Below the pieces are notes generated by a model that saw only the letters and a program-made list of their open reading frames with translations, had not been told where the DNA came from and ran no database searches. The position numbers and the translations under genes are program-made. A stretch of 64,000 nt of DNA from an uncultured Acidobacteriota bacterium (GTDB taxonomy: Bacteria; Acidobacteriota; Vicinamibacteria; Vicinamibacterales; JAKQTR01): NCBI GenBank assembly GCA_963834645.1, contig CAWICP010000018.1, forward strand, positions 2,534 to 66,533, in the 5' to 3' direction. Position 1 is the first letter of the stretch; each line of letters begins with the position of its first letter. Shown here one piece after another: positions 26,708 through 47,219 of this stretch.

Positions 26708-29559
<2,852 letters not shown>

Positions 29560-29724: not shown

Positions 29725-31871
<2,147 letters not shown>

Positions 31872-31875
<4 letters not shown>

Positions 31876-33422
31876 CCGCCGCGCATCGCCCCATCGTGTT
31901 CACGCTGAACGGGAGGCGGGTGTCGCTGCGCGTGCACCCGCTGAAGCGCCTGCTCGACGTCCTGCGGGAAGACTGCGGGCTGACGGGCACGAAGGAAGGC
32001 TGCGGCGAAGGCGAGTGCGGCGCGTGCACGGTGCTCGTCGACGGGCAGGCGGTCAACTCGTGCCTGGTGCCGGTGGCCCATGCGGCGGGAACGAAGGTGC
32101 TCACGATCGAAGGTCTGAAAGGCCGCCACCCGCTGCAGCGCGCCTTCGCCGAGTCCGGCGGGGCCCAGTGCGGCTTCTGCACGCCGGGCATGATCATGGC
32201 GGCCGCCGCGCTGGGGCCGCGCCCGACGCTCGATGAGGTGCGCACGGGCCTTGCCGGCAACATCTGCCGGTGCACGGGGTACGAGGGGATTTACAGGGCC
32301 ATCAGGAAGCCAGAAGCCAGAAGCCAGAAGACAGAAGCACAGAAGCAAGAAGCGAAGCAGAGCAAGAAGGAAGAGCGCGGACGCCCGAATCCCGAATCCC
32401 GAGTCCGCGAAGCCCGATCGGCGAAGCGCGCGGAGGCGGCGGTGAGGACCGCGGTCTCGCCCCTGGTGCTCCTGCAGCCGCGGTCGGTGCGCGAGGCGCT
32501 CCGGATGCTGCGCGACGAGGGCCCGCTCACGCCGCTGGCGGGCTGCACGGATCTCTACGTCGGCTTCAACGTCGGCGCGCTGGCCGACCGGCGGTTCCTG
32601 AACGTCCGGGGCCTCGGCACACTCCGCGGGATCGAGGTGCGCGGCGACGTGCTCCGGATCGGGGCCCTGACGACGTATCGCGAGATCATCGAGTCGGCCC
32701 ACGTGCGCCGCCGCCTGCCCATGCTCGCCGCGGCCGCGCGGGAGATTGGCGCGGTGCAGATCCAGAACCGCGGCACCCTCGGCGGGAACATCGCCAACGG
32801 CTCGCCCGCCGGAGACACCCTGCCCGTGCTCGCCGCCGCGGAGGCGCTCGTCGAGCTTCGCAGCCTCGACTGGACGCGCAAGGTGCCCTTCGCGGACTTC
32901 TACACGGGCTACCGCGCGAGCGTCCGGCGGACGGACGAACTCATCACGGCCATCGAGGTGCCCCGGGTGGAGGGCGCGCAGTGGTTCCGCAAGGTCGGCA
33001 CGCGCGCGGCGCAGTCGATTTCCAAGGTGGTGATGGCGGGCGTGCGCGCCGACCGGCCGCGCATCGCGCTCGGCAGCGTGGCGCCCACCGTCGTCCGCGC
33101 GCGTCGAACGGAGGACGCGCTCGCGTCGGGCGCGACGCTCGCCGAGGCGCAGCAGGTGCTGCAGCAGGAGATCAGCCCGATCGACGACATCCGGTCGACC
33201 GCCGCCTACCGGCGGGAAGTCGCCGCGCGCCTGCTGGCGCAGTTCTGGGCTCGAGCAGCCGCCGCCTCATGGCCCTGCTACTTCCCCAGCGCGGCCAGCT
33301 TCTCGCGCGCCTTCGTCACGTCGCGGTGGAAGACGAACAGCTTGTCCGCGTTGTCGGACTTGTCGGTGAAGTTCCAGGTCTTGCCGCCCTTCTGCTTCAC
33401 CTTCAGTTCCTTCTTCAGGTAG
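31872..33422 (+). CDS. Fused (2Fe-2S)-binding small subunit + FAD-binding (CoxM/XdhA-type) subunit, as read; the true 3' end is probably near ~33270
   Basis: 2Fe-2S: GTKEGCGEGECGACTVLVDG...NSCL and GGAQCGFCTPGMIMA...NICRCTGY. A repeat-encoded linker KPEARSQKTEAQKQEAKQSKKEERGRPNPESR follows. FAD domain: LLQPRSVREALRML...PLAGCTDLYV...IQNRGTLGGNIANGSPAGD...SKVVMAG...DDIRSTAAYRREVA. The ORF tail after ~33270 overlaps the convergent PEGA gene and looks non-coding. Confidence 0.8.
32309..32406. repeat. Heptanucleotide repeat array inside the inter-domain linker
   Basis: GCCAGAA x3 (32309-32329), GACAGAA (32330-32336), then degenerate GCACAGAA/GCAAGAA units. CCCGAAT CCCGAAT CCCGAGT follows (about 32384-32404). 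Confidence 0.7.
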
Positions 33423-34084
33423 TCGATCTCGAAGATCTCGAGCGCGGCGAACGGGAAGGCGAACGCGTCGCCCTTGTTGGCCGTGTCGTAGCGGAGCCCG
33501 TCGGGCGTGGCCACGAGCCGGCCTTCGCAGGACCTCCCCATGGCGTGCTTGTGCACGACGGGCACCGAGGCGTCGAGCCGCACCTCCCTGAACTTCAGCG
33601 TGACGGTCGTTTCGCCCGTCTCGGCGACGTCGACCGTCTGCGCCAGCCCCTCCTCGCCCGTCGCCGACGCGTTCAGCTGGTGCGAGCCTCCCGTCACCTC
33701 GGTCGTGCGAAGCGGCGTGGTGCCGACGAACTTGCGATCGACGAAGACGGACGCCCCCGGCACGTCGCTCTCGACCACGAGCGTCGGGCCGGCGGGCGGC
33801 GGCGCGGCCGGCTCGGGGGCCGGCGGCGCTTCCCTGCGCGGCCGGGGCCTTCGGGCCGCCGGTGTGTCGGCGGGCGTCTCGGGCTCGGACGGCTTCGCCG
33901 CCGGCGGCCCGGGTGCGGGCTCGGCTTGCGCAACCGGCGCGGGCTCGGGCTTCGCCTCCGGCTTCATCATCATCGTCACGCCGACGTAGGCCAGGGCCAG
34001 CACGGCGATCGCCGCCGCGCCAATCACCAGGAACCTGCCCATGCCCCCCGACTGCGGCTGCTGGTCGTGGTTCATCACCGACAT
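33278..34084 (-). CDS. PEGA domain membrane-anchored protein
   Basis: ORF 33278..34141; likely start MSVMNHD at 34084. One TM segment (FLVIGAAAIAVLALAYVGV), a Pro/Ala-rich linker, then the PEGA motif LVVESDVPGASVFVDRKFVGTTPL. Confidence 0.7.
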   Translation of the reverse strand: MSVMNHDQQPQSGGMGRFLVIGAAAIAVLALAYVGVTMMMKPEAKPEPAPVAQAEPAPGPPAAKPSEPETPADTPAARRPRPRREAPPAPEPAAPPPAGPTLVVESDVPGASVFVDRKFVGTTPLRTTEVTGGSHQLNASATGEEGLAQTVDVAETGETTVTLKFREVRLDASVPVVHKHAMGRSCEGRLVATPDGLRYDTANKGDAFAFPFAALEIFEIDYLKKELKVKQKGGKTWNFTDKSDNADKLFVFHRDVTKAREKLAALGK

Positions 34085-34107
34085 CGCCCCATCCCTCCGC
34101 CGCACAG

Positions 34108-34182
34108 TATACAAAGGGTGACACTGTCCCTTTCCGGCCAATCCGGAAAGACCGGCCGGAAATGGAAAGTGTCCCTTTATAC
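34108..34182. repeat. Imperfect long inverted repeat in a divergent promoter region; related to the 40628-40677 palindrome
   Basis: TATACAAAGGGTGACACTGTCCCTTTCCGG ... CCGGAAATGGAAAGTGTCCCTTTATA, with an inner hairpin CTTTCCGG-ccaa-tCCGGAAAG. It overlaps the putative ATG 34162 of the downstream membrane protein. Confidence 0.45.
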
Positions 34183-36241
34183 TCGCCGGGTGACAGATGC
34201 TCGAGCACCCGCCGCCTGGCCGCCGCCTGGCCCGTCGGCCTGGCCGTCATCGCCATCCTCGCCTGCGCGATCGAGCTCGGCGGGCGGCAGATCGTCCGCC
34301 AGTCGCTGCTGCAGAACCTCACCGGCGCGGCGCCGCCTCCGGCCGCCCTGCTGGTGGCGATCGCCGCGGCGGCGGCCCTCGCGGGCGCCGCCTGGCTCAG
34401 GCTGCGCCGGGCCCTCACGATGGACCGGGCCGTGGCGCTGGCGCTCTGCGCCCTCTTCGTGGCCGGCCTCGCGGCGCAGCAGCGCCTGGGCGCCCGCCTC
34501 CAGAGCGACGGGTTCTTCTACTTCGCCTTCCTCCGATCGATCGTCAACGACCACGACGTCAGCCTCGCCAACGACTATGGCCTCATCGGCATCGGCGGCG
34601 AGGCGATCATGACGCCGACCTCGACGGGGTACGCGCAGACGGCATGGTCGGTGGGCCCGGCCATCGCCTGGATGCCGTTCTACGCGATTGGCCATGCCGG
34701 CGCGAGCTACCTGGCGGCCCGAGGGGTGCAGGTGGCCGTGGACGGGTCGTCGTATCCCTACCGGCAGGCCATCTGCGTCGCCGGCCTGTTCTACGGCCTC
34801 CTGGGCTTCTGGTTCTGCTACCGGCTCGCGGCGCGGCACTTCTCCGGCGGCCTCGCCATCCTCTCGACCGCGGCCCTCGCGCTCGGCTCCTTCATGCTCT
34901 GGTACGTCGTGAAGGAGCCGACCATGTCGCACGCGACGTCGATGTGCGCGGTGGCCGCGTTCATCTACGCGTGGGACGTCACGCGCGGCCGGCGGGCGGC
35001 CTGGCAATGGGCGGCGCTCGGGCTGCTCGGCGGCCTCATGCTGGCCATCCGCTGGCAGAACCTCGTCTTCATGGCGTTCCCGGCCTGGGAGCTCGTCTCG
35101 GCGCTCGCCGCGGGCCCCGGCGCGCGGGAACGGCGCGCGTCGGTGCTGCACGGCGCGCTGTTCGGCGCCTGCGCGTTCGTCGCGTTCCTGCCGCAGCTCG
35201 TCGCGTGGAACGCGATCTACGGCTCGCCGATCGCGGTCTCTCCGCTCTCGCCGAAGATGCTGTGGCTCAGCCCCGATCCGGTGCGCATGCTCTGGTCGTC
35301 GCGGAACGGGCTGTTCTCCACCTCGCCCGATCACCTACCTGGCGGCGCTGGGGCTTGTCGTCTTCGCCGTCCGGGACCGGCGTTCGGCCGGCTCGCGCTG
35401 GCGGTGTTCGCCCTGGCCGTCTACGTCAACGCGTCGGTCGAGGACTGGTGGGGCGGCGCGGCATTCGGCGCGCGCCGCTTCGACGGCACGATGCCGCTGC
35501 TCGCGGTCGGGCTCGCGGCGGCCGTCGACGGCCTGCGGCGGTGGAACGCGAAGCGGCCGCTCGCTGGCGTCGCGGCCGTCCTGGGCCTGCTCGTCCTCTG
35601 GAACATCGCGGCCATCGCGGCCGGCGTCGCGGGCCGGTTCGGCGGGAGCGTGCCTCAGTCGTTCGCCGACCTCGCGGTGGACCAGGCCCGCACGCTCTCG
35701 CGCTGGTTCGGGCACCCGTTTTCGTACCCGGCCAACCTGGTCTACGCGGCCCGCGAGGGCGTCGCGCCGTTCCGCTACGACTTCTTCGCGTTCCCGATGC
35801 TCGGCGATCCCGAGCGCCCGTACGGCCGCGTCGACATCGGGCGCACGACGACGCGTACCTCGGCGACGGCTGGTACCAGGCCGATACGCAGCCCGACGGC
35901 ACGACGTCCCGGTGGTCGCGCGGCACGGCCGAGGTGCTGCTGCCGCTGGACCACCCGGCGCCGCTCGTCGTCCAGCTCCGCCTGAAGCCGTTCTCGTACC
36001 CCGGGGCGTCGCTCGAACCTCGCCGTGCGCGTCAACGGCCGCAGTTTCGGTCCCGTTTCCGCTGGGCGCCGACTGGCAGCGCGTGGACTTCCCGACGGAC
36101 GCCTCGGCGTGGAGGGCGGGGGTGAACCGCGTGCAGCTGGTCTGGACGGGGGCCGCCGTCCCGGCGGCGGTGGGCATGGGAAACGACGCGCGCGAGCTGG
36201 GCGGCGCGACCGACTACGTGCGGATCCAGGTGGCGCGCTGA
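34162..36241 (+). CDS. Large polytopic membrane protein, GT-C (ArnT/PMT)-like by architecture; about three frame breaks
   Basis: More than 10 hydrophobic segments. Early loop QSDGFFYFAFLRSIVNDHDVSLANDYG. The C-terminal soluble part ...DDAYLGDGWYQADTQPDGTTSRWSRGTAEVLLPLDHPAPLVVQLRLKPFSYPG... / ...FPLGADWQRVDFPTDASAWRAGVNRVQLVWTGA...TDYVRIQVAR ends at 36241. Confidence 0.5.
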
Positions 36242-46084: not shown

Positions 46085-46105
46085 GGTTCCCTCGAAGAAC
46101 AGTAG

Positions 46106-46132
46106 TCAGAAGCCAGTAGCCAGTAGCCAGAC
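46106..46132. repeat. Heptanucleotide repeat (GCCAGTA family) in the intergenic region
   Basis: tcagaa GCCAGTA GCCAGTA GCCAGAC, followed by GCCCAGTCCCCAGCCCC. Same architecture as the 32309-32406 array. Confidence 0.55.
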
Positions 46133-47040: not shown

Positions 47041-47219
47041 CAGAAGCCAGAATCAGAGTCAGTAGCCAGTGAGCGAGACAGAAGACAGAAGACAGAAGAC
47101 AGAATACGGGGGACAGTATACAGCCGTGCGGCTGACGAAGGGCCCGGCGAGCGAACTGCCCCACCGGGCCCCGGCTTTCTTGTCTTCTTGCTTCTGTCTT
47201 CTTGCTTCTGTCTTCTTCC
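47041..47219. repeat. MITE-like structured intergenic element built from heptamer repeats in inverted orientation
   Basis: Left arm GACAGAA x4 (47077-47104). Right arm TTCTTGTCTTCTTGCTTCTGTCTTCTTGCTTCTGTCTTCTTCC (47177-47219), the reverse complement of GACAGAA/GCAAGAA units. Inner hairpin GGCCCGG (47141-47147) / CCGGGCC (47164-47170). Confidence 0.55.

Follow-up and report, generated by a model that had tools for sequence, protein, structure and literature searches.

In split enzymes of the CoxLSM/CutLSM type, in 4-hydroxybenzoyl-CoA reductase and in PucCDE-type xanthine dehydrogenase, the 2Fe-2S, flavin adenine dinucleotide (FAD) and molybdopterin domains reside on separate subunits, whereas XdhA from R. 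capsulatus (1jro chain A; family TIGR02963) carries the 2Fe-2S and FAD domains in one chain. Heptanucleotide repeats, for their part, have been described in Xanthomonas (GGGAATC) and Nostoc (GGGGA(C/T)T) (Rehm et al., 2015, PMC4692102). The locus analyzed here combines such an enzyme with such repeats. It is located in a 64,000-nucleotide (nt) stretch of contig CAWICP010000018.1 (assembly GCA_963834645.1) from an uncultured Acidobacteriota bacterium; this whole stretch is referred to below as the window. As assembled, the window contains an open reading frame (ORF) of 516 amino acids (aa) (31872..33422) which spans a 2Fe-2S small subunit (S) and an FAD-binding medium subunit (M), the two being joined as ...CRCTGYEGIYRAIRKPEARSQKTEAQKQEAKQSKKEERGRPNPESRVREARSAKRAEAAVRTAVSPLVLLQPRS... 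across heptamer arrays, while each of 89 related loci has S and M as separate genes. We consider it likely that the apparent S-M fusion represents two ordinary overlapping genes which have been joined by one extra base, an assembly artefact.

The locus is most likely a three-gene operon, in the order L-S-M, which codes for a molybdoenzyme of the xanthine dehydrogenase family. The gene for the molybdopterin-binding large subunit (L; 29725..31875, forward strand) specifies 716 aa with the Pfam domains Ald_Xan_dh_C (PF01315), MoCoBD_1 (PF02738) and MoCoBD_2 (PF20256), so that an adjacent molybdopterin-binding subunit is present. Its best NCBIfam match is PucD-like, at a score under the cut-off. 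The stop codon of L overlaps the start of S as ATGA (31872-31875). The conserved domain part of S (31872..32305, forward strand), which ends with ...CRCTGYEGIYRAIR, carries Fer2 (PF00111) and Fer2_2 (PF01799) at residues 10-145, includes the cluster motif CRCTGY, and has zero window-specific indels when compared to four close relatives. M (32442..33422, forward strand) is represented by FAD_binding_5 (PF00941, 1.3e-42) and CO_deh_flav_C (PF03450, 1.4e-14) at residues 200-461 of the assembled ORF, and its conserved part extends to about 33250. Because none of the subunits reached an equivalog cut-off in the NCBIfam search, no substrate was assigned.

Like the split enzymes, the locus would have neighbouring genes for a molybdopterin subunit (716 aa), a 2Fe-2S subunit (about 160-190 aa) and an FAD subunit (about 273 aa). 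It has the domain content of the CoxLSM-type enzymes, and relatives of the window locus have exactly the split layout. The locus differs from CoxLSM-type enzymes in its L-S-M order and in that both junctions are 4-nt overlaps which follow hypervariable, heptamer-built tails. With XdhA, the assembled chain shares the domain order, with residues 8-457 corresponding to residues 3-444 of 1jro chain A. Unlike XdhA, however, the orthologues of the window locus are unfused, and what looks like a linker in the window is not a conserved one but a microsatellite, within which the Shine-Dalgarno sequence and start codon are intact and a stop codon is out of frame.

A preliminary description of this locus, made from the sequence alone, had noticed heptamer arrays between the 2Fe-2S and FAD domains, and these are indeed present. 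Tandem Repeats Finder (TRF) reports a GAAGNNA array at 32306..32353 (forward strand; period 7, 6.7 copies, score 73, 4% indels) and a CCCGAAT/CCCGAGT array at 32384..32417 (forward strand; period 7, 4.7 copies, score 45), the latter in the distal part of the S tail. The first consists of three copies of GAAGCCA, one GAAGACA, an irregular 8-nt unit GAAGCACA (32334..32341, forward strand), GAAGCAA and GAAGCGA, and is followed by degenerate units. The second consists of two copies of CCCGAAT followed by CCCGAGT. A hairpin at 32376-32409 was considered and dropped, as it is not conserved in the closest relative (L043, see below).

The translation signals described at the start of the FAD domain were likewise recovered in full. 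A Shine-Dalgarno sequence for M, GGAGG (32432..32436, forward strand), precedes a GTG codon (32442-32444) with a spacer of 5 nt; a GGAGG-like block precedes the start codon in relatives as well. The GTG is in the frame of S (frame 0), and it overlaps a TGA (32443-32445) in the +1 frame, so that GTGA (32442..32445, forward strand) unites the start codon of M with the inferred stop codon of S. The +1 frame is open through the repeat, from 32233 to 32445 (a 70-codon ORF), and closes on this TGA, also as originally stated. Since 7 and 3 have no common factor, a pure heptamer array is translated into one and the same 7-aa repeat whichever frame is used (EARSQKP for GAAGCCA, PESRIPN for CCCGAAT), and a frame change therefore alters the downstream sequence only. 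One of the two wrong frames of the tail results in the S-M fusion, while the other stays open across M for hundreds of codons (ORF 32270-34612).

The junction was compared in 89 loci which contain both the CRCTGY motif of S and the PLAGCTD motif of M. The comparison included 19 genomes at the genus, family and order level and a metagenome scan, which added 80 loci, 67 of them with both motifs; the family-level genome survey covered 21 genomes. An S-M fusion was found in none of the 89 loci. In 61 of them, S stops at a distance of exactly 89 nt from the downstream PLAGCTD motif, its stop codon being part of an (A/G/T)TGA which overlaps the start of M. The window TGA at 32443 has the same distance of exactly 89 nt from its PLAGCTD motif (32532). 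At the genome level, the TGA of S overlaps the start of M as ATGA or GTGA in 16 of 19 genomes, followed by M/V-R-T-A-(I/V)-S. Stand-alone M proteins, which begin with MRTA or VRTA, form more than 100 clusters at 72-94% identity and have 258-300 aa (mostly 271-275). One syntenic relative, L029 (GCA_974425115.1), whose M protein is 94% identical, has the gene order L, S, M, followed by PEGA in convergent orientation and by the gene for a membrane protein; its S (190 aa) and M (273 aa) genes overlap by 4 nt. The comparison of orthologues for split versus fused arrangements and for presence of the repeat, which the preliminary description had proposed, thus yielded no fused locus and no conserved fused linker.

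Repeats are nevertheless common at this position. A period-7 signal was detected in the S tail of 38 of the 89 loci, compared to none for periods 5, 6, 8 or 9. The number of heptamer units varies strongly between close relatives: in the JGI metagenome contigs L043 (97% aa and 94% nt identity), L045 and L044, which are the closest relatives of the window locus, the tails have 192, 126 and 108 nt, respectively, at 94-97% identity of the M proteins, which indicates fast turnover. Even so, 36 of the 38 array-bearing loci keep the canonical overlap, and the remaining two stop earlier on a TAG; a fused or third-frame state was not found among the 38.

These data bear on the proposal that the repeat acts as a contingency locus, in which slipped-strand changes in unit number would reversibly toggle between a split (S + M) and a fused (S-M) enzyme. 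The arithmetic of this proposal stands: 7 is not a multiple of 3, and a change by one unit shifts the frame. The strong differences in unit number among close relatives fit as well, and so does the fact that one of the out-of-frame states is a plausible fusion rather than a truncation. As in the contingency loci of Haemophilus, Neisseria and Campylobacter, a tandem repeat with a unit length that is not a multiple of 3 is part of a reading frame. Comparative support for a toggle is what failed to appear, because alternative frames, as expected for phase variation, do not occur among the close relatives; all 36 canonical loci use the split frame. Unlike in contingency loci, the gene codes for a subunit of a cytoplasmic metabolic enzyme, with no surface or restriction function, and the repeat is at the 3' end of the gene, where it alters a gene junction instead of switching a gene off. 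In addition, the third frame would pass through M for hundreds of codons in the wrong frame, and the window array has 8 units plus 1 nt when counted from 32306, which is indicative of a point indel instead of a change in unit number. Phase variation was also held to be unlikely for such heptamer repeats by Rehm et al. (2015, PMC4692102). We regard a reversible switch at this locus as very improbable.

The frame in the window deviates from that of the relatives by a single step. The distance between the CRCTGY and PLAGCTD motifs is 155-635 nt across the 19 genomes; for this purpose it was measurable in 18 of them, and in 17 of these it equals 2 (mod 3). The distance of 267 nt in the window is 0 (mod 3) and corresponds to one base in excess or two bases missing. 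The CCCGAAT-type block of the window is homologous to CCCGAATCCCAAGTCCCGAATCCC in L043, and the frame used by L043 at this position is the +1 frame of the window. The distal tail DNA which L043 has in common with the window (...AAGAAGGAAGAGCGCGGACGCCCG.A.CCCGAATCCC.AGTCC...) reads RRKSADARNPNPKS in the S frame of L043 and RRKSADARIPNPES in the +1 frame of the window, as opposed to KKEERGRPNPESR in frame 0 of the window. Because L043 reads the distal tail in the +1 frame of the window, the break can be placed in, or directly behind, the GAAGNNA array (32306-32365). The segment from the AAG after ATCAGG to the AAGAAGGAAG block measures 57 nt in the window as against 74 nt in L043, and the difference of 17 nt does not correspond to whole heptamers.

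The candidate position for the extra base within the array is the irregular 8-nt unit at 32334-32341; L045 has exact 7-mers (GAAGACA) at the matching place. Deletion of one base from this unit results in an S protein of 190 aa which ends with ...RRKSADARIPNPESAKPDRRSARRRR (...ARRRR) directly before the stop codon; this is the length of S from L029, and the Arg-rich end resembles that of the relatives. Gap placements relative to L043, L045 and L029 (MAFFT and manual alignment) differ and yet are equally good, and because of these alternative alignments the 8-nt unit is a candidate only.

The same data can be applied to programmed +1 ribosomal frameshifting in the repeat, by which a separate S protein would be produced from the sequence as assembled. 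The open +1 frame which ends on GTGA is compatible with such an event, and nothing more speaks for it. The relatives have no need of it, neither a conserved slippery site nor a stimulatory structure was found, and the array sequence is unconserved even at 94% overall nucleotide identity. This explanation is thus exceedingly improbable.

The window belongs to a genome of 3.45 Mb in 22 contigs with 70% GC, which is rated 61% complete; related proteins carry Acidobacteria names. In order to estimate how often the reading frames of this assembly are disrupted, the long housekeeping genes uvrA, secA, gyrA and ileS were used as a yardstick (rpoB and rpoC were not found in this incomplete assembly). 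As judged from the frames given by the coordinates, there are two frameshifts in the uvrA gene from the window, one in a second uvrA, four in secA, one in a second secA, one in gyrA and one in ileS. This amounts to 10 frameshifts in about 14.6 kb (about 0.7 per kb), and all six of these genes are split. The window uvrA gene (26789-29544, reverse strand) is distributed over three frames (hidden Markov model positions 2-304, 301-900 and 899-924), with breaks near 28640-28660 and 26860-26870. Both breaks are single-base insertions outside of homopolymer runs (GCAGGGCGCCATC versus the expected LLAGAIAPW and CATCTTGATCGAC versus the expected HLIDL). A further irregularity is located within the operon, about 500 nt upstream of the S-tail site: the L motif PATPERVMAAP, which is conserved genus-wide, is altered in the window by a compensated indel pair (31806..31819, forward strand) in which, relative to L029, a C has been added at 31807 and a G lost at 31819. 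To restore the frame of the S tail, one base would have to be removed, a change of the same type as the indels in uvrA and in the L motif. Frameshifts may also account for part of the low completeness (61%), and long-read metagenome-assembled genomes from the genus of the window seem to be generally indel-prone. As a separate observation, the M gene is frameshifted in the few-contig genome G002 (locus L024), where PLAGWYSTS replaces PLAGCTDLY.

Taken together, we favour an assembly artefact because none of the 89 related loci is fused, the overlap site is intact, the closest relative uses the +1 frame of the window for the distal tail, and frameshifts occur in the assembly at about 0.7 per kb. 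A single-base error that hides a two-gene arrangement, which had been proposed as an alternative in the preliminary description, has become the favoured explanation, and the reading of the repeat as the linker of a fused subunit is probably wrong; the repeat would rather be a translated, hypervariable C-terminal tail of S. According to this model, an unconserved, spacer-like stretch after the S domain would have been colonised, in the lineage of the window, by heptamer microsatellites of a type found genome-wide, and would be translated into a charged, low-complexity C-terminal tail. S would end on the TGA of GTGA (32442-32445) and M would start on the GTG of the same overlap, behind its own GGAGG, so that the two genes are separate and translationally coupled. 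A single-base insertion error in the GAAGNNA array, with 32334-32341 as candidate position, would have made the assembled tail one base too long (mod 3). By this extra base, S would read through the GTG and appear to be fused to M.

Several points weigh against this explanation. About 3.2 kb of conserved L, S, M and PEGA gene bodies are devoid of an uncompensated window-specific indel, so that the local error density is not extreme, and only about 0.1 indel errors are expected in a tail of 140-180 nt. The argument for an assembly error is indirect, being deduced from related loci and from frameshifts elsewhere in the assembly. The exact extra base is not fixed by the sequences at hand, as the array of the closest relative differs by 17 nt from that of the window and can be aligned to it in several ways. 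A fused 2Fe-2S/FAD chain works elsewhere (R. capsulatus XdhA, 1jro_A, is the best PDB match, over the full length), and a real mutation could therefore be tolerable. Finally, the conserved stop codon of M is missing in the window, which may reflect real local divergence. In weighing the artefact, we set the about 0.1 expected errors against a frequency of real fusions below about 3% (0 of 89 loci), in addition to the intact Shine-Dalgarno sequence, GTG and TGA.

The strongest competitor is a real fusion in this strain, by which insertion of one base, or a net length change of the array, would really have occurred and generated an XdhA-like chain whose linker of about 45 residues is encoded by the repeat; such an event could be neutral or tolerated. 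The order of the 2Fe-2S and FAD domains and a flexible linker between them fit XdhA (1jro_A, one stretch, residues 8-457) and TIGR02963 over its full length, and tails of 192, 126 and 108 nt at 94-97% M identity imply that frame-changing events must happen. When read as one chain, the protein can be aligned over its entire length with both 1jro_A and TIGR02963, which suggests that a fusion is not obviously lethal to the enzyme. There are also a few fused S-M proteins at 52-66% identity in the databases (P0001-P0003 and P0084). However, the TIGR02963 score is 321.2 bits and thus below the cut-off of 467, and several other long fused database entries look like artefacts. The absence of fusions among the relatives, the conserved position of the intact Shine-Dalgarno sequence, GTG and out-of-frame TGA, and a frameshift rate which makes an error the likelier origin of one extra base also argue against a real fusion. 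We thus consider it unlikely, though less so than the other alternatives to an artefact.

With respect to the long database entries that resemble frameshift artefacts, P0004 has a garbled M start, and P0089 and P0108 contain sequence which is partly shifted-frame-like. Look-ups of the exact protein sequences of the fused ORF and of the PEGA protein retrieved no identical protein in other assemblies.

If an artefact is accepted as the likely cause, the S tail still has an unusual pattern of conservation: neither its sequence nor its length is conserved, and yet the frame which ends on the start of M is kept. Selection appears to act on the frame of the S tail rather than on its sequence, because 36 of the 38 array-bearing relatives keep the overlap. 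A plausible reason for keeping the frame is that expression or stoichiometry of M requires termination at the overlap, by translational coupling. The tail itself would then be a tolerated, disordered appendage. The L-S junction is organized in the same manner, with an ATGA or GTGA overlap in 16 of the 18 relatives with a locatable L end, and the L tails of the relatives are hypervariable and often heptameric.

In the window, the L tail before the ATGA (31820-31875) is hypervariable and has two copies of GGGGACC. The L tails of relatives (L012-L027, L029) consist of heptamers such as GGCGAGA, GGGATTC, GGGACTC/GGGGCTC and GGGGCAA. In some of them, such as L013, inverted arrays flank the S gene, with GGGATTC in the L tail being the reverse complement of GAATCCC in the S tail.

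The arrays of the S tail belong to a repeat family that is found throughout the genome. When the whole genome was analyzed with TRF, 274 arrays with period 7 were obtained, compared to 2, 19 and 9 arrays with periods 5, 6 and 8. About 8 main unit families account for 239 of the 274 period-7 arrays, with CCCGAGT (58), GAAGCCA (46), AGCCAGT (40), CCCGAAT (25) and AGCCCCT (25) among the units besides others. The linker DNA of the S/M junction matches 44 other sites in the genome. For the placement of arrays relative to genes, we used a frame-signal method based on GC3 (GC content at third codon positions), an ORF-based classifier being too crude at 70% GC. A coding signal is present within 15 nt on both sides of only 17% of the arrays, compared to 63% of random sites. 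Among 310 gene-array pairs, the upstream stop codon is located before the array in 196 cases and inside the array in 50; in 26, the gene reads through the array to a stop codon within 90 nt. The array at 32306 is among the minority which are inside an ORF tail.

In these respects, the window repeat corresponds to the heptamer simple sequence repeats (SSRs) known from Xanthomonas and Nostoc. These too are tandem 7-nt units from few unit families, with hundreds of arrays per genome, which are mainly located outside of genes and near stop codons, and which differ in copy number among relatives. The units themselves are different: the main unit here, GAAGCCA, is A/G-rich, without G-tracts and not of the GGGNATC type. 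When unit sequences are compared, neither GAAGCCA/GAAGACA nor CCCGAAT (complement GGGATTC) fits the GGGNATC-type, G-quadruplex-capable pattern. The window repeat is a member of the known class of bacterial heptamer SSRs, and its unusual trait is that it is translated and frame-locked. The literature was searched for Acidobacteria with heptanucleotide repeats and for the short tandemly repeated repetitive (STRR) sequences of cyanobacteria, which yielded nothing useful.

More arrays of these families occur elsewhere in the window, with 4.4 copies of CAGTAGC at 46100-46130 and 4.1 copies of AGACAGA at 47076-47104. Within one and the same spacer, the latter array forms an inverted pair with the TGTCTTC/TTGCTTC sequence at 47181-47217, which is the reverse complement of GAAGACA/GAAGCAA.

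Two further observations concern the surroundings of the S and M genes. The M ORF lacks a stop codon at the conserved position (FWAATQ or FWLDTR directly before the stop in relatives) and continues for 50 extra codons, thereby entering the convergent PEGA gene (33278-34084) at its 3' end. None of the frames has a stop codon near the expected M end in the region 33245-33422. The M-PEGA spacer of L029 contains an array of three copies of CCCCATG, and at this place the window has about 20 different bases. In the order-level genome G033, where CRCTGY and the M motif are 635 nt apart, the spacer between S and M contains a gene for a protein of 137 aa (L028:2360-2773, reverse strand) which is assigned to PF13366 (PDDEXK_3, E = 5e-42). 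This locus shows that the S-M junction can take up a small, possibly selfish gene from the PD-(D/E)XK nuclease superfamily.

For annotation, the 516-aa "fusion" should be represented as two genes, and the finding as initially posed then matters little. Any ORF anomaly in this genome needs to be read with its frameshift rate in mind. In a more far-reaching but doubtful scenario, the S and L tails are frame-locked translated microsatellites whose heptamer arrays are free to grow and shrink, with selection retaining the end of the upstream ORF on the downstream start codon; a real frame change in this strain would have led to the S-M fusion, and repeat instability would now and then turn a three-subunit enzyme into an XdhA-like two-subunit enzyme. 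If this were true, the natural S-M fusion would be a live example of how fused and split architectures interconvert in this enzyme family. In this Vicinamibacterales family, both junctions of the operon are 4-nt overlaps which follow tails filled with fast-changing heptamers, a situation that would illustrate selection on the reading frame alone, acting across a microsatellite. The heptamer repeats of bacteria are poorly understood, and the locus extends them into translated sequence.

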